64,000 nucleotides of DNA from the NCBI GenBank assembly GCA_963822445.1, contig CAWGHO010000002.1, positions 1,440,001-1,504,000 of the forward strand, read 5' to 3'. Positions 11,678-20,743 of the stretch are shown one piece after another. The number at the start of each line of letters is the position of its first letter. Position 1 is the stretch's first letter. Source of the stretch: an uncultured Acidobacteriota bacterium (GTDB lineage: Bacteria; Acidobacteriota; Thermoanaerobaculia; Gp7-AA8). Below the pieces are notes generated by a model, which did not search any database, was not told the origin of the DNA, and saw only the letters and a list, made by a program, of their open reading frames with translations. The position numbers were made by a program, and so were the translations under genes.

Positions 11678-12976
11678 ATGGCTGCGTCGCGGGTCTACTC
11701 GGTCTCGGAGCTCATTCGCCACCTCACCGTCGATCTATCGCGGTATAGCGACATCGCCGTCGAGGGAGAAGTTTCCAATTTCACGCGTTCCGCGGCGGGT
11801 CACCTTTACTTTTCGATCAAGGACGCCCGCGCGCAGATCAAGGTCGTTCTGTTCGCCACGAACGCCCGTTTTCTGCGGTTCAAGATCGAGAACGGGCTGC
11901 AGCTGATCGTCCGAGGACGGATCTCGATCTATGAAGCGAAAGGCGATCTCCAGCTCAACGCGGTCAGCGCGGAGCCTGCCGGCCTGGGAGCGCTGCAGCT
12001 CGCCTTCGAACAGCTGAAGAAGCGGCTCGCCGAAGAAGGCCTGTTCGATGCGGCCCGCAAGAAGCCGATCCCGATGCTGCCCCAGCGCATCGCCGTCGTC
12101 ACCAGTCCGAGCGGCGCTGCGATTCGCGACATCCTCAACGTTCTGGGCCGCCGCTTCGAAGGGCTGTCGCTGCAGATCTATCCCGTCCGCGTGCAGGGTC
12201 CGACCGCCGGCCGCGAGATCGCCGCGGCCCTCCGTCATCTCTCGCGCTGGAAGCAGCACGACGTAGTGCTGATCTGTCGCGGCGGAGGCTCGCTGGAAGA
12301 CCTCTGGGCATTCAACGAGGAAGTCGTGGCTCGCGCCGTCGCGGCCTGCGAGATTCCGACGATCTCCGGCATCGGCCATGAGACCGACTTCACCATCACC
12401 GACTTCGTCGCCGATCTGCGCGCGCCGACGCCGTCCGCCGCGGCGGAGATCGTCATTCGCGCGAAGAGCGAGATCTGTACGCAGATCGATCACATGACCC
12501 GCCGCGTGCGGCACATCGTCGAAGGCCGCGTGCGCAACTATCGTCACGAGCTTCGCCACATCATGTCCTCCGATCGTCTCGGCCTCGTTCCGCGGCGGAT
12601 CGTTGCCGCGCGCGAACGTCTCGAGCGCCGGAGGGTGATGCTGTTCCGCATGCTCGACGTTCGCGCGAAATCGCTGCGGCGCCGGCTGATCGCTGCCGAT
12701 CAGCCCCTGCTGCGTTATCCCGCGCGAATCGTCCGCGATCGCGAGAAATTGCGGGCGACCATCGCCACGCTCAACGCCGTCTCGCCGCTTTCCGTCCTTT
12801 CGCGCGGATACGCGATCGCGTTTTCGCGCACGCGCCGGGGCCGGAAACCGATCCTCGACTCGGCCCAGGTCAAAGTCGGCGAGCAGATCGAGGTGCAGCT
12901 CAAACGAGGCCGGCTGGAGGCAACCGTCGACCGCCACACGCTCGGCGTCGAGAGTCTCTGGCCGGAAGTGCTATAA
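11678..12976 (+). CDS. xseA: Exodeoxyribonuclease VII large subunit
   Basis: GEVSN, GHLYFS, RGGGSLEDLWAFN, GHETD, APTPSAAAE, LSRGY. Confidence 0.97.
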   Translation: MAASRVYSVSELIRHLTVDLSRYSDIAVEGEVSNFTRSAAGHLYFSIKDARAQIKVVLFATNARFLRFKIENGLQLIVRGRISIYEAKGDLQLNAVSAEPAGLGALQLAFEQLKKRLAEEGLFDAARKKPIPMLPQRIAVVTSPSGAAIRDILNVLGRRFEGLSLQIYPVRVQGPTAGREIAAALRHLSRWKQHDVVLICRGGGSLEDLWAFNEEVVARAVAACEIPTISGIGHETDFTITDFVADLRAPTPSAAAEIVIRAKSEICTQIDHMTRRVRHIVEGRVRNYRHELRHIMSSDRLGLVPRRIVAARERLERRRVMLFRMLDVRAKSLRRRLIAADQPLLRYPARIVRDREKLRATIATLNAVSPLSVLSRGYAIAFSRTRRGRKPILDSAQVKVGEQIEVQLKRGRLEATVDRHTLGVESLWPEVL

Positions 12977-12985
12977 CCCGCGCCG

Positions 12986-13255
12986 ATGGCCGCCCGCCGC
13001 ACCTCCAACGAGTTCGAGAAGTCCTTCCAGCAGCTCGAGAAAATCGTCCAGCGACTCGAGGCCGAGGAGCTGCCGCTCGATGAGTCGCTGCAGCTTTTCG
13101 AGGAAGGCATCCGCCTGTCCCGCTTCTGCCATCAGCGGCTCGAAGAGGTCGAGAAGAAGATCGAATTGATCCTCGCCGACGCGAAGGGGCAGCCGGTGAC
13201 CGAGCCGTTCGAAGAAGACGTCATCGACGAGGATGAGGAAGCCGCGCCGGAGTGA
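12986..13255 (+). CDS. xseB: Exodeoxyribonuclease VII small subunit
   Basis: FEKSFQQLEKIVQRLE...LDESLQLFEEG. Confidence 0.95.
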   Translation: MAARRTSNEFEKSFQQLEKIVQRLEAEELPLDESLQLFEEGIRLSRFCHQRLEEVEKKIELILADAKGQPVTEPFEEDVIDEDEEAAPE

Positions 13256-14157
13256 GCCTCAACGAATACCTTCAGTCGCGGCGCGCTCTGGTCGATCGAA
13301 CGCTCGACGCGAACCTTCCTCCCGCCGATACGAACCCGCCCATCATTCACGAGAGCATGCGCTACGCGGTCCTGGGCGGCGGCAAGCGCATCCGCCCGAT
13401 CGTGGCCATCGCCGCGGCGGAGACATGCGGCGCGGACATCGAGCCGCTGCTCGTCCATCTCTCCGCGATCGAGCTCATTCACACCTATTCGCTGGTGCAT
13501 GACGACCTGCCGGCGCTCGACAACGACGACATCCGTCGCGGGCGCAAGACCACGCACGTCGTGTACGGCGAGGCGATGGGGATCCTGGTCGGCGACGCGC
13601 TTTTGACCGAGGCGTTTTCTTGGCTGGCTCGGCCGCTGGCTGCGGTGGAGCCGTTGCGGCAATTGCGGGCGATCACGACGGTCGCGACGGCGGTGGACTC
13701 GACCGGGATGATCGGGGGGCAGGTCGCGGACATCGTCGCGGAACGCTCCCAGGAAGCGAGCGACGATCACGATTCGCTGGTCAGAGAGCTCGATTTCATC
13801 CACCGCAACAAGACCGGCAAGCTCTTCACGGCCTCGCTCCTCCTCGGCGGGCTCCTCGGCGGCGCGTCGGAAGACAACCTGAAGGCGCTTCAGCTCTACG
13901 GTGACGCCCTGGGGCTGGCCTTTCAGATCGTCGACGATCTGCTCGACATCGAGGAGTCGACGGCGACCCTCGGCAAGACCGCGGGAAAGGACGTTGCGCA
14001 GGGAAAGCTGACCTATCCGGCGCTTCTGGGCATCGAACAGGCACGGGCGGAGGTGGGGCGGCTCATGGGAATCGCCCTGGAGAACGCTGCTATCATCGCC
14101 GGTCCTGTGAATTACCTGGGTCCGCTCGCACGTTACATCTGCGAACGTAGGACCTAG
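13252..14157 (+). CDS. ispA: Polyprenyl (farnesyl/geranyl) diphosphate synthase
   Basis: GGKRIRP, HDDLPALDNDDIRRG, FQIVDDLLD, GKTAGKD. Confidence 0.94.
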   Translation: MSLNEYLQSRRALVDRTLDANLPPADTNPPIIHESMRYAVLGGGKRIRPIVAIAAAETCGADIEPLLVHLSAIELIHTYSLVHDDLPALDNDDIRRGRKTTHVVYGEAMGILVGDALLTEAFSWLARPLAAVEPLRQLRAITTVATAVDSTGMIGGQVADIVAERSQEASDDHDSLVRELDFIHRNKTGKLFTASLLLGGLLGGASEDNLKALQLYGDALGLAFQIVDDLLDIEESTATLGKTAGKDVAQGKLTYPALLGIEQARAEVGRLMGIALENAAIIAGPVNYLGPLARYICERRT

Positions 14158-14172
14158 GCGGAAAGCTCAGAC

Positions 14173-16194
14173 ATGAAACGACTTCTCGATTCCATCGAAT
14201 CCCCGCGTGATCTCCGGAAGCTCGATCGCACGCAGCTCCCCCAGGTCGCGCAGGAGATCCGCGACATGATCATCGACGTCGTGTCGAAGGTCGGCGGCCA
14301 TTTCGGCGGAAACCTCGGCATCGTCGAGTTGACCCTGGCCCTGCACTACGTCTTCGACACGCCGCGCGACCAGATCGTCTTCGACACGGGTCACCAGAGC
14401 TATCCGCACAAGCTCATCACCGGCCGCCGCGACACGTTCCACACCATCCGCCAGCACGGCGGGATTTCCGGATTCTGCAAACGGGAAGAGTCCGAGTACG
14501 ACGTCTTCAACGCGGGTCACGCGTCGACGTCGATCTCCGCGTCGCTGGGCATCGCCGTCGCGCGCGATTTCCGCAAAGAGGATTACCGCGTCGTCGGCGT
14601 GATCGGCGACGGTGCGCTGTCAGGCGGTCTGGCGCTGGAAGGCGTCAACCAGGCCGGCCATCTCAAGCGCAAGTTGATGATCGTGTTGAACGACAACGAC
14701 ATGTCGATCTCCACGAACGTCGGCGCGATGTCGGGTTACCTCAACTCGATCATCAAAGGACAGCGCTACGTCCAGCTCAAGGATCTGGCCAAGGGCGTGA
14801 TGGATCGCATCCCTCTCGTCGGCGGCAAGCTGCACGGCATCGCTCACGACATGGAACAGCTCCTCAAGAACATGGTCGTGCCGGGCACGCTGTTCGAGGA
14901 GCTCGGATTCAAATACCTCGGCCCGTACGACGGCCACGATCTCAAGTTCCTCATCGATCTCTTCGAGGAGCATCGCGATTACAACGGCCCGCTCCTGATT
15001 CACGTCATCACCAAGAAGGGGAAGGGCTACACGCCGGCCGAGAACAAGCCGATCTGGTCGCATGGCGTCACGCCGTTCGACATTCCGTCCGGCGAAGTGA
15101 AGAAGTCCGACAAGCCGCAGCCGCCGAGCTACACCGCTGTGTTCGCGGACGCGCTGACGCAGCTGGCGAAAGAAGATCCGAAAGTCGTGGCCATCACCGC
15201 GGCGATGCCGGAAGGCACGGGGCTCGACAAGTTCGCGAAGGTCTTCCCGGAGCGGATGTTCGACGTAGGCATCGCCGAAGAGCATGCGATCACGTTCAGC
15301 GGCGGCATGGCCACGCAGGGATTGAAGCCGGTCGCGGCGATCTACTCGACCTTCCTGCAGCGCGCGTTCGATCAGGTGTTCCACGACGTGGCGATCATGG
15401 ATCTGCCGGTCGTATTCGCGCTCGACCGCGGCGGCATCGCCGGCGCGGACGGCCCGACGCACCACGGCATCTACGACATGGCCTACCTGCGGGTCTTCCC
15501 GAACATGGTCTGCATGGCGCCGAAGGACGAGAACGAGCTGCGGCACATGCTCAAGACCGCGCTGAACTGCGGCCACCCCGCGTCGCTGCGCTACCCGCGC
15601 GGCAACGGGATCGGGGCGAAGCTCGATCCGGAGATCGTCGCGCTGCCGGTTGGTAAGGGCGAGGTGCTGCGCGAGGGTCCTGACGCCACGATCATCGCCA
15701 TCGGCAACGAAGTTTGGCCGTCCTACGAGGCGGCGGAGACACTCGCCAAAGAGAACATTAACGTCACTGTTATCAATGCTCGTTTCATCAAGCCTTTAGA
15801 TGATGAATTGATCAAGAAATACTGCACGCCTAATTCGTACGTCATTACCGTGGAAGAAGGCTCGCTGGCCGGCGGCTTCGGCAGCGCGGTGATGGAACGC
15901 TGCGAACAGCTCGGTCTGCGCGGCGTGAACTTCCACTCCATCGGCATCCCCGACGAGTACGTGCACCACGGCGCGCAGGACGTGCTCCGCGCGCAGTACG
16001 ACCTGCATGCGGAAGGGATCGCGAAGCGGGTGCGGGAGTTTCTCGAAGCAGCTCCCGCGGGGACCGTCGGCGACCTGGCGGCGCTGATACACAAGCACTT
16101 CCATGATGTGCCGGAAGAGGAGTTGCGGAAGTTGCCGGGCTCCGACCGCATCGACGAGGTCGTTTACGGCATCCCAAGCCGCGTCGCGAAGTAA
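14173..16194 (+). CDS. dxs: 1-deoxy-D-xylulose-5-phosphate synthase with atypical C-terminal extension
   Basis: GGHFGGNLG, GHASTSIS, GDGAL..NDN, FDVGIAEEH, DGPTHHG, RYPRG. Confidence 0.97.
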   Translation: MKRLLDSIESPRDLRKLDRTQLPQVAQEIRDMIIDVVSKVGGHFGGNLGIVELTLALHYVFDTPRDQIVFDTGHQSYPHKLITGRRDTFHTIRQHGGISGFCKREESEYDVFNAGHASTSISASLGIAVARDFRKEDYRVVGVIGDGALSGGLALEGVNQAGHLKRKLMIVLNDNDMSISTNVGAMSGYLNSIIKGQRYVQLKDLAKGVMDRIPLVGGKLHGIAHDMEQLLKNMVVPGTLFEELGFKYLGPYDGHDLKFLIDLFEEHRDYNGPLLIHVITKKGKGYTPAENKPIWSHGVTPFDIPSGEVKKSDKPQPPSYTAVFADALTQLAKEDPKVVAITAAMPEGTGLDKFAKVFPERMFDVGIAEEHAITFSGGMATQGLKPVAAIYSTFLQRAFDQVFHDVAIMDLPVVFALDRGGIAGADGPTHHGIYDMAYLRVFPNMVCMAPKDENELRHMLKTALNCGHPASLRYPRGNGIGAKLDPEIVALPVGKGEVLREGPDATIIAIGNEVWPSYEAAETLAKENINVTVINARFIKPLDDELIKKYCTPNSYVITVEEGSLAGGFGSAVMERCEQLGLRGVNFHSIGIPDEYVHHGAQDVLRAQYDLHAEGIAKRVREFLEAAPAGTVGDLAALIHKHFHDVPEEELRKLPGSDRIDEVVYGIPSRVAK

Positions 16195-16599
16195 ATGCCG
16201 GAGTATTTAGCCGACACCTGGTATTTCGTCGCGCTGGCAAACCGGTTCGATGCCCAACACGCCGCGGCACTCCGTCTGGAGCCACTCGTGGCACGCAACC
16301 GGGTCGTCACGCACGACGGAGTGCTTTCGGAGGTGCTCTCCTTTTTCTCAGGGAGTGGCGCTTTCGGCCGGCAGCGAGCGACGGGTGTTGTTCGCGATGC
16401 ACTTCGGACGTTGCGCGTGCTGCCTGCCGACCGCCGGCTGTTCCTTGCCGCGCTCGATCGCTACGCCGCTCGCCTCGACAAGGAGTACTCCCTCGTCGAT
16501 TGCATGTCGATGGTTCTCATGGAACGACGCGGCACCACCCACGTCCTCACCAACGATCACCACTTCTCCCAGGCCGGTTTCATAGTCGTGAACGGATGA
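16195..16599 (+). CDS. vapC: PIN-domain VapC-type toxin
   Basis: LADTWYFVAL, VLSE, YSLVDCMS, LTNDHHFSQAGF; acidic PIN residues present. Confidence 0.88.
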   Translation: MPEYLADTWYFVALANRFDAQHAAALRLEPLVARNRVVTHDGVLSEVLSFFSGSGAFGRQRATGVVRDALRTLRVLPADRRLFLAALDRYAARLDKEYSLVDCMSMVLMERRGTTHVLTNDHHFSQAGFIVVNG

Positions 16600-17387
16600 A
16601 AAAGCAGCGCCTCGACGTCGTCCTCGTCGAGCGCGGCCTCGTCGACACCCGTTCGAAAGCGCAGTCGCTGATCATGGCCCGGCGCGTTCTCGTGAACGGG
16701 CAGTTCGTCGACAAAGCCGGGGCGACGGTCGCCGCGGATGATGAGGTGACGGTCGCGGAGCTCGAGCATCCCTGGGTCGGGCGCGGGGGGATGAAGCTCG
16801 CTCACGCCCTCGAGGAATTCGCGATCAGCGTCGAAGGCAAGGTCTGCGCGGACATCGGCGCGTCGACCGGCGGATTCACCGACGTGATGCTGCAGAACGG
16901 CGCGAAGAAGGTCTATGCGATCGACGTCGGCTACGGCCAGCTCGACGTGAAGCTCCGCAACGATCCGCGGGTCGTCAATCGGGAGAAGGTCAATGCCCGC
17001 TACCTGCAGACGGACGCATTCGACGAGCCGATCGAATTCGTTTCCATGGATCTCTCCTTCATCTCCCTCACTCTCGTCCTACCCGCGGTCACGCGTTTTC
17101 TTCGCGGCGATCTCGTCGCGCTGATCAAGCCGCAGTTCGAGGTCGGGAAGCACGAGGTCGGAAAGGGCGGCATCGTGCGCGACGAGGTCAAGCGTCAGGC
17201 CGCGGTCGACAATGTCGTCGCGTTCGCCCGCGAGAACGGGTTCGACGTGAAGGGCGTGATCGAGAGTCCGGTGAAGGGTGCGGAAGGGAACGTCGAGTTC
17301 CTCATGTATGCAAGATGCGCCCTTACGGGCGACACTCTAGATACTCCCGCAGCCCCTCCCGCCACGACTCCGGAGCCACTCCCGTGA
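16596..17387 (+). CDS. tlyA: TlyA family rRNA 2'-O-methyltransferase
   Basis: S4 domain KQRLD, GRGGMKL, DIGASTGGFTD, SFISL, LIKPQFE, GNVEFL. Confidence 0.95.
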   Translation: MKKQRLDVVLVERGLVDTRSKAQSLIMARRVLVNGQFVDKAGATVAADDEVTVAELEHPWVGRGGMKLAHALEEFAISVEGKVCADIGASTGGFTDVMLQNGAKKVYAIDVGYGQLDVKLRNDPRVVNREKVNARYLQTDAFDEPIEFVSMDLSFISLTLVLPAVTRFLRGDLVALIKPQFEVGKHEVGKGGIVRDEVKRQAAVDNVVAFARENGFDVKGVIESPVKGAEGNVEFLMYARCALTGDTLDTPAAPPATTPEPLP

Positions 17388-18153
17388 CCCGCTCGTAGCG
17401 CTCCGTCGAAAGCACCGAGTACGCCGGTCGTTTCGCGGGTCGCGGAAACTCATCGCTGGTCACAGGTTTCACCGGCTGATCGCCCGCGATCGCGACCGCG
17501 AAGTCGTACCACGAGCACTCGTCCTCATCGGCGTAATGCACAAGTCCGCGAACATCGGCGATGGCCAGCCGGATGATCGCGTTCGCGAGATGCGGCGTGT
17601 ACGTCGGCCGGCCGCGCTGATCGGAAACGACCCGCAGCGGATTCGTCCCTTTGCGCACCTGATTGCGGATCGCTTCGACGAAATTCGGACCATGAACGCC
17701 GAACAGCCACGAGGTCCGGACGATCAAATGCCGGTCCGCATGCGTCGCCGCGAGCTCGCCGAGCAGTTTCGAACGGCCGTATGCCGACAGCGGATTGGTG
17801 GCATCGGTGACTTCGTACGGCTCGCGTTTCGTCCCGTCGAACACGAAGTCGGTCGAGATCTGTACCAGCAGCGCGCCGTTCGCATTCGCGGCCGCGGCGA
17901 GCAATTCGACCGACGAGCCGTTGATCGCGTTCGCGGCGCTCTCTTCCGACTCGGCCTGATCGACCTTCGTGTAAGCCGCACAGTTCACGATGATCGACGG
18001 CGCATGCTCTGCGACGCACGCGTTCACCGCGCGGGAGTCGGTGATGTCGAGATCGGTGCGGGAAAGCGCGGCGACGTGCTCGCCGCGGTTGACGAGCTCT
18101 GCGTGAAGGTCGGTGCCGACCATGCCGCCGGCACCGGTAATCAGCCAATTCAC
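17323..18153 (-). CDS. rfbD: dTDP-4-dehydrorhamnose reductase
   Basis: TGAGGMVG, NCAAYTKVD, ISTDFVFDG, YGRSK, RPAYSVL. Confidence 0.93.
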   Translation of the reverse strand: MNWLITGAGGMVGTDLHAELVNRGEHVAALSRTDLDITDSRAVNACVAEHAPSIIVNCAAYTKVDQAESEESAANAINGSSVELLAAAANANGALLVQISTDFVFDGTKREPYEVTDATNPLSAYGRSKLLGELAATHADRHLIVRTSWLFGVHGPNFVEAIRNQVRKGTNPLRVVSDQRGRPTYTPHLANAIIRLAIADVRGLVHYADEDECSWYDFAVAIAGDQPVKPVTSDEFPRPAKRPAYSVLSTERYERVTGVAPESWREGLREYLECRP

Positions 18154-18348
18154 TTAAGCGGTCTTGTCGTCCGACGCCTTCGGCAGCGCCTTGTCGTCTT
18201 TGCCCTTGCTCAGGCCGTCGCGGAAGTTGGAGATCCCTTCGCCGAGGCCCTTCCCGAGCTGGGGCAGCTTGCTGGCGCCGAAAATCACGACCACGATGAC
18301 GAGAATGACGAGAAGTTCCGGCAGTCCAAACGGTCCGAACATCAACAT
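18154..18348 (-). CDS. tatA: Twin-arginine translocase TatA/TatE subunit
   Basis: [29 protein letters not shown]; AGGAGG RBS before ATG at 18348. Confidence 0.92.
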
Positions 18349-18443
18349 TGAGAGCCTCCTGAGGCGTTCACGAGTGTATCCGAAACAGCGCGGCGCGCGG
18401 ATGCGTTCCACCCGAACCGCGCTTGTTAAGATGCGGCCTCCAC

Positions 18444-20743
<2,300 letters not shown>

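Follow-up and report, generated by a model that had tools for sequence, protein, structure and literature searches.

The essential enzyme DXS, the first of the methylerythritol phosphate (MEP) pathway, carries a C-terminal tail in an uncultured soil bacterium of the phylum Acidobacteriota, and we consider it likely that this tail is the antidote of a PIN-domain ribonuclease encoded immediately downstream. The locus lies in a stretch of 64,000 nucleotides (GCA_963822445.1, contig CAWGHO010000002.1, positions 1,440,001 to 1,504,000), hereafter the window, and about sixty relatives share both the DXS-tail and the PIN. The arrangement probably represents a VapBC-type toxin-antitoxin module set in an xseB-ispA-dxs-tlyA operon, with the antitoxin reduced to a toxin-binding peptide that makes up the last 49 residues of DXS. 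A first-pass annotation had proposed such a module at the 3' end of dxs, with the neutralizing peptide within DXS, and this structural reading held on every test run, as far as sequence comparison and modelling can tell. The open reading frames (ORFs) and other features concerned are the following.

14173-16194, + strand: DXS ORF including the tail, 673 aa, with its stop codon TAA at 16192-16194
14173-16044, + strand: DXS catalytic core, residues 1-624, matched by TIGR00204 and three Pfam DXS/transketolase domains
16045-16191, + strand: DXS C-terminal tail, residues 625-673, read as the toxin-binding module of an antitoxin
16192-16197, + strand: TAA-ATG junction, the dxs stop followed by the PIN start, as read from the sequence
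16195-16599, + strand: intact gene of a PIN-domain (VapC-like) ribonuclease, 134 aa, PF01850
16596-17387, + strand: tlyA-type rRNA methyltransferase (Pfam S4 and FtsJ), a context gene outside the module
12986-14157: two ORFs 5' of dxs, xseB-like (89 aa) and ispA-like polyprenyl diphosphate synthase (301 aa), assigned by eye

The Pfam domains DXP_synthase_N, Transket_pyr and Transketolase_C occupy residues 5-616 of DXS, and TIGR00204 matches residues 7-624 with 836 bits (cut-off 466). As the first-pass annotation had described, the frame continues for 49 residues past this usual end and is followed by the PIN gene, whose ATG at 16195 abuts the dxs TAA with zero gap. No Pfam or NCBIfam model matched residues 625-673. 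The tail, VPEEELRKLPGSDRIDEVVYGIPSRVAK, is composed of a short variable linker and an amphipathic helix, followed by VPEEELRKLPGSDRIDEVVYG and a basic end. The tlyA ATG at 16596 overlaps the PIN stop codon (ATGA). That the PIN gene splits a dxs-tlyA pair, also part of the original description, agrees with the PIN-less congeners (L014, L023 and L030), in which tlyA comes right after dxs. Likewise, the supposed lack of a separate antitoxin ORF was borne out, as profiles of the tail and of the antitoxin C-terminal motif described below both failed to detect another copy among the 108,313 six-frame ORFs of the 6.0-Mb genome. This DXS is the sole match to TIGR00204 above the cut-off in that genome, which is 94.7% complete and also contains Dxr (450 bits, above its cut-off). 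With no second DXS encoded, the fused protein must be the working DXS.

Profile comparison shows homology between the DXS tail and the C-terminal ends of proteins whose genes directly precede those of a VapC20-like PIN subfamily. In a scan for relatives of the PIN with one genome per species, we kept the best 80 of 556 confirmed matches. Eighteen of these 80 are records from Thermoanaerobaculia or Acidobacteriota, all 18 with a DXS-tail upstream. The other 62, at 37-53% identity, come from cyanobacteria, Planctomycetota, Armatimonadota, Chloroflexota and others. At 61 of these 62 outside-class loci, the upstream ORF ends in (I/V)P.EE...LP.D(G/L)...D(H/Y)Y(L/I)YG.PK(R/K); at the lone exception, L105, the PIN itself is in pieces. 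A motif likened in the first-pass annotation to the C-terminus of small proteins upstream of this VapC subtype was thus found where it had been expected. It agrees with the DXS tails: in hhalign, a profile of 23 of them aligned with one of 58 partner C-termini from other phyla at 96.4% probability and an E value of 1.1e-9 over 41 columns. Conversely, a profile of the 58 foreign C-termini ranks the DXS tail first of the 108,313 own-genome ORFs (E 0.0036), the next ORF being at E 1.5. Two of the loci (L104:1936-3330 and L096:2552-3312) have a PIN split over two frames, by a frameshift or an assembly error, next to an intact upstream tail-bearing ORF; the tail of L104 (…SGEIDRVVYG) belongs to the DXS-like sub-variant.

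As a single query in a near-length search, the tail returned one match, a 37-aa fragment too short to be informative. The profile of DXS tails, searched against 1.84 billion representative proteins, gave 36 matches at E<=1e-3, 27 of which were retrieved: seven DXS C-terminal fragments, 12 standalone proteins of 60-99 aa and eight others. The 12 standalone proteins have PSSDRIDEVVYG-type ends, P(S/P)SD.ID..VYG, and E values from 2.7e-8 to 7.8e-4. A metagenome scan with four of the 12 as queries yielded five loci. In both loci where the match covered the tail, a PIN is encoded directly downstream; one of these PINs is 48% identical to that of the window (E 8e-35) and the other is frameshifted. 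In the remaining three loci the likeness is confined to the N-terminal domain, and no PIN is present. The tail-only profile search suggested in the first-pass annotation therefore returned what it had anticipated, small proteins that, in the two cases with context, are encoded directly upstream of PINs. From their sequences, these standalone modules are a likely donor type of the DXS tail. Scans of 10 small, 10 large and 10 standalone proteins turned up no Pfam family for the motif. Five long matches of the DXS-tail profile (P0133, P0138, P0139, P0142 and P0149; 800-1228 aa), each with 6-11 weak stretches, were judged repetitive and unrelated.

Structure prediction supports binding of the tail to the PIN. 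Two-chain models of the PIN and the tail, computed with separate alignments, reached interface scores (ipSAE) of 0.88, 0.88 and 0.86, against 0.02 for the best of three controls, so that the complex modelling proposed in the first-pass annotation came out in its favour. The ipSAE mark is attained by 58 of 80 solved complexes and by 2 of 110 mismatched pairs. Between the runs, at least 90% of contacts are the same, and the pLDDT of the tail is at least 76. The predicted interface takes in most of the tail, namely the helix and the P..SD.ID.VVY segment, and PIN residues 6, 8-21, 46, 99, 118 and 120, around the catalytic D7, E46 and D121.

The PIN matches PF01850 with 35.9 bits (cut-off 23.6, E 1.3e-8), and D7, E46, D102 and D121 are invariant across 21 orthologues. 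Median pairwise ratios of nonsynonymous to synonymous substitutions (dN/dS; Nei-Gojobori, 11 and 9 pairs) amount to 0.21 in the PIN and 0.29 in the tail; the DXS core has 0.09 and tlyA 0.14. The PIN gene is shown by these sequence ratios to be under purifying selection. It is full length without stops in 58 of the 61 genomes in which it adjoins dxs. Together, the sequences make the PIN look active and maintained. By profile, its nearest solved chain is VapC20 (5wzf, E 4.1e-16), for which a sequence search of the PDB returned only its two entries. According to its description, VapC20 cuts 23S rRNA at the sarcin-ricin loop unless bound by VapB20 (PMC7891357). The NCBIfam VapC equivalog gave the PIN only 13 bits, far under its cut-off of 80, and PADLOC matched nothing for PIN or DXS. 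Only one other ORF of the genome, outside the window (C2:640635-641048, - strand), weakly resembles the PIN profile (E 0.015).

For the distribution of the module, we used a family set of 124 genomes, including that of the window, and a genus set of 24 other species. The family counts include unpublished genomes, G002 and G130 with tail and PIN and G076 and G128 with neither; alignments A1 and A2 also contain G002, and no claim depends on unpublished genomes alone. In the genus, 21 of the 24 congeners have the three-gene layout with a tail of 49-56 residues, the exceptions being a genome with the tail but without PIN (G014) and two with neither (G015 and G021). The stop codon of dxs and the start of the PIN gene abut in seven of the 22 genus genomes with PIN and overlap by one base (TAATG or TGATG) in 14. 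The remaining one, L010, has no ATG there: its PIN frame (L010:3536-3943) lacks ATG, GTG or TTG at the dxs junction, and may have an unusual start or be decaying. The first-pass annotation had asked that the junction be confirmed in related genomes. Since the same fused frame is found in independent assemblies, 21 of the 24 congeners and 61 of the 124 family genomes, the junction is not an assembly error.

A PIN of this kind is encoded in 64 of the 124 family genomes, in 61 of which its gene directly follows dxs in the same orientation. These 61 genomes span 12 of the 40 genera, and all 61 have the tail. For 57 of the tails, the alignment reaches at least residue 139 of the 150-residue query; the other four, confirmed by eye, have longer linkers, and G105 has two tandem tail copies. 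Among the 117 genomes in which the DXS end could be located, 49 have the canonical end and no adjacent PIN. They were called by the end of the alignment and a missing PIN match, and three of them were read directly; two further genomes are cut by contig ends. No intact PIN was found behind a tail-less DXS in the 124 family genomes. Outside the family, tail and PIN are both absent at the DXS of three genomes from other families of the order and of two from the class.

The tail is intact and the PIN deleted in G014 and G098. In-frame PIN remnants follow an intact tail in G131 (52 residues) and G139 (42 residues). In G138, the tail is intact and the PIN frameshifted; in G133, the PIN is gone and the tail internally deleted; and in G137, both tail and PIN are frameshifted. 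The assemblies of G137 and G138 consist of few contigs, and errors may account for their frameshifts. In the four tail-only genomes, PIN remnants or clean deletions indicate secondary loss of the PIN. A tail common in DXS proteins without vapC would have spoken against the first-pass proposal; instead, all 61 dxs-adjacent PINs have a tail in front of them, and the four tail-only genomes appear to go back to such losses. Loss of the toxin first and of the antidote later (5 to 0) is the direction predicted by a toxin-antitoxin pair, and is consistent with one. As a separate observation, the remnants of G131 (L116) and G139 (L119) keep a start at the dxs stop and a stop at the tlyA start, as if translation of tlyA needed coupling to a preceding ORF.

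In a tree of the DXS core rooted with other families, the tail-less G015 is basal (support 86/92), and the tail-only G014 pairs with the tail-less G021 (91/86), which is on a long branch. The tree excludes the outgroups L028 and L029, and L030 is on a long branch, its placement unsure. This topology fits one gain followed by losses.

The tail and much of the PIN gene evolve fast. Nucleotide identity of two sister species drops from 0.84-0.99 across the dxs core to 0.56-0.66 between the start of the tail and about 130 nt before the PIN stop, and recovers to 0.84-0.91 beyond. This fast island corresponds to positions 16045-16470 of the window, that is, the tail and the first two thirds of the PIN gene, and to the same stretch in L003, L004 and L006. 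Synonymous divergence is 1.2-1.5 in tail and PIN, 2-3 times the values of the core (0.43) and of tlyA (0.59), and GC content at third codon positions is 0.74 in the PIN gene and 0.83-0.86 in the flanks. Co-evolution of the interface, weaker codon bias or exchange of the cassette between lineages are possible causes. An arms race would fit a fast-evolving tail/PIN interface between slow flanks.

Judging from the sequences, the motif is a mobile module, found on DXS as well as on DNA-binding domains, methylases of restriction-modification systems and defence-candidate proteins. With length taken from the first Met, the 58 partner proteins comprise 44 of 49-139 aa, 10 of 277-340 aa and four of 728-974 aa. 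An N-terminal domain of antitoxin type scored above the Pfam cut-off in three of 10 small partners, MazE/AbrB in one and AF2212-like in two. The large partners are DNA methyltransferases, with PF01555 (a type III Mod match, E 1e-186) and N6_Mtase. At L057:80-6245, from Latescibacterota, the 974-aa Mod protein of a type III restriction-modification operon ends in the antitoxin tail, and a PIN of the same subfamily is encoded between mod-with-tail and a ResIII-domain gene, a design like that of dxs-tail, PIN and tlyA. At nine loci (L054, L061, L072, L073, L082, L103, L107, L110 and L051), the tail is found at the end of proteins of about 305 aa that match positions 1-256 of the 375 of PDC-M32A, a PADLOC defence-candidate (E 1e-36 to 1e-51; L051 partial). 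The PIN is directly downstream, and the L110 pair lies between accD-like and accA genes. One further tail is on a T5orf172/MUG113 protein.

A search aimed at longer proteins gave 205 with the motif at E<=1, and PF01555 was present in 10 of the best 120. All eight proteins inspected (P0002, P0003, P0004, P0005, P0008, P0010, P0014 and P0018) have two to four tandem tails. Tandem tails also occur on one DXS, with the two copies of G105 (L114). DXS is the sole core metabolic enzyme seen with the tail in the searches made here. Other enzyme carriers could be missed because the DXS tail is too divergent for the longer-protein search.

As for the rest of the locus, the ispA-like ORF has two DD..D motifs and, by eye, the two ORFs 5' of dxs would give the common xseB-ispA-dxs order. 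Within 12500-18500, we found no promoter-like sites, and six terminator-like sites against 4.1 expected, which is no signal. Separate synthesis of the tail from an internal start was judged unlikely by eye. The codon at the core/tail border is CTC, and in-frame GTG or TTG codons are found only inside the motif, again by eye. The predicted fold of the full-length DXS-tail protein (mean pLDDT 62, pTM 0.44), for which the alignment was shallow, with 19 close sequences, is uninformative on the freedom of the tail.

The reading that we favour, in which the tail serves as antidote, would work as follows. The ribosome finishing DXS-tail may re-initiate on the PIN gene by translational coupling, and each PIN molecule would then be preceded by its antidote. 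The tail helix and the SD.IDE.VYG segment are predicted to occupy the PIN groove beside D7, E46 and D121 and to block the active site, so that the PIN would be stored on DXS. As the antidote has no DNA-binding domain, the classical transcriptional autoregulation of type II modules would be lost. The PIN would be freed only if the tail or linker were clipped, or if DXS were degraded faster than the PIN. Once free, the PIN might cleave RNA and stop growth; ribosomal RNA, the substrate of its nearest solved relative, is a possible target. Proteotoxic stress, metabolic stress and phage are candidate triggers of release. For the biological role, a DXS proteostasis checkpoint, an abortive-infection guard and a frozen accident are all candidates; a guard or metabolic checkpoint had been put forward, as a possibility, in the first-pass annotation.

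It is conceivable, if tentative, that the tail is a portable leash, and that a VapC20-like ribonuclease reports the integrity of whichever protein carries the tail, here the first enzyme of the MEP pathway. If so, clipping or degradation of DXS, by stress proteases, feedback-driven turnover or phage, would free a nuclease that blocks translation, and the module would act as a checkpoint or an abortive-infection guard on isoprenoid supply. The tails on restriction-modification methylases and defence-candidate proteins would then represent a general guard design.

A frozen accident seems considerably less likely to us than the favoured reading. A mobile toxin-antitoxin cassette would have landed behind dxs, and a deletion would have fused the toxin-binding end of the antitoxin to DXS; the fusion would be kept because losing the tail in the presence of an active PIN is lethal, with no use for the host and the PIN slowly decaying. 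Plausible donors are at hand, namely the standalone modules with near-identical tails. The lack of a regulatory domain also agrees with such an origin, as does the loss or breakage of the PIN in at least 5 of the 66 genomes with a tail or remnant, after which the tail decays. However, addiction cannot shield a toxin gene from inactivating mutations, and yet 58 of the 61 PINs are full length, with invariant catalytic residues and a dN/dS of 0.21, over 12 genera.

That the PIN is a working RNase placed or tuned by DXS, one that does not inhibit growth when free, seems unlikely to us. The tail would then be a recruitment peptide, for instance for turnover of the operon mRNA or feedback on DXS. 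Its presence on large enzymes elsewhere (the type III Mod of L057, N6 methylases and PDC-M32A-like proteins) does suggest a general tether, and the PIN gene appears to be translationally linked to dxs and tlyA. Nevertheless, 44 of the 58 partners are small and antitoxin-like, three of the 10 scanned have a known antitoxin-type N-terminal domain, and the nearest solved relative of the PIN is a bona fide toxin. Moreover, the predicted interface covers active-site residues, which would mean inhibition rather than mere docking.

Lastly, a lineage-specific DXS extension for regulation or oligomerization, adjacent to the PIN by coincidence, would accommodate the four genomes with a tail and no PIN, as well as the uninformative full-length fold, but is highly improbable given the 61 of 61 co-occurrence, the homology of the tail to antitoxin C-termini, the PIN remnants in two of the four tail-only genomes and the tail-less DXS of the other families of the order.

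Several points count against the tail being an antidote. In the usual toxin-antitoxin model the antitoxin must be labile, and a large enzyme that is presumably both stable and abundant would be an odd choice; the release mechanism given above is a proposal. The tail resembles the general motif only modestly, with 19.7 bits by profile and 32% identity by hhalign. Binding stands for model confidence, some of which may reflect likeness, as VapB-VapC complexes have already been solved. The 5-to-0 order of losses is not significant, at about 0.2 if breaks scale with length (405 vs about 150 nt), and two of the broken copies behind it (G137 and G138) may be assembly errors. The PIN was lost at least four times by different deletions, and is thus dispensable. 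Transcript or peptide support for tail and PIN was not obtained: no run among the public reads contains this genome (best share 0.09), and four soil RNA runs aligned at 80% yielded short matches to conserved stretches of dxs and tlyA, from foreign organisms, none usable on tail or PIN.

The purpose of chromosomal toxin-antitoxin modules has long been debated, partly because it is seldom known what sets the toxin free. In this case, the putative antidote is physically part of an identified, essential and well-studied enzyme, so that toxin release can be tracked alongside the fate of DXS. The maintenance of the arrangement over 12 genera with an intact nuclease argues for some function. The mobile tail also offers a simple rule for finding further enzymes that double as antitoxins, and the short peptide is a possible tool for restraining a PIN nuclease.

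Among known systems, VapBC is the closest. The putative toxin is also a PIN domain with four acidic residues, nearest to VapC20 among solved structures (5wzf and 5wz4), and its antidote is encoded directly upstream, with stop and start codons touching or overlapping. The C-terminal peptide of the antidote is predicted in the PIN groove, in agreement with the general description of VapB in PMC5499597. In contrast with VapBC, a small labile antitoxin is missing: all of the protein N-terminal to the tail is DXS, devoid of a DNA-binding domain, and the antidote is the C-terminus of an essential enzyme of 624 residues in a housekeeping operon. Sarcin-ricin cleavage, as given in PMC7891357, belongs to VapC20, to which the PIN is likened by sequence only.

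The standalone modules (P0135, P0136, P0145 and P0151; L123 and L124) have the same tail sub-variant, PIN subfamily and gene order, with touching genes. They differ in that the tail is on a protein of 60-99 aa with an N-terminal domain of its own that has no Pfam family; many of these proteins start with MTAKEAL.

The PrrC anticodon nuclease is kept latent by the EcoprrI restriction-modification enzyme. By analogy, the PIN would also be a ribonuclease that is silent while bound to a large enzyme of the cell and set free once this enzyme is perturbed. Nevertheless, PrrC belongs to an unrelated nuclease family, with no fusion peptide and no metabolic link, and the Mod-tail/PIN/Res locus L057 is a closer parallel to it than the dxs locus.

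Chaperone-addiction (ChAD) extensions, found on the antitoxins of toxin-antitoxin-chaperone systems (PMC5105189 and PMC6377645), make an antitoxin depend on a SecB-like chaperone. There too, a short portable C-terminal peptide alters the dependence of an antitoxin, whereas here the toxin-binding peptide itself appears to be portable and to have moved onto an enzyme.

No description of a DXS-antitoxin fusion or of the motif was found in the literature covered, with supplements and subscription journals outside that coverage. VapC-like PINs and VapB-like binding peptides are known; an essential enzyme as putative antitoxin, conserved over 12 genera, is in our judgement a new arrangement of these known parts.

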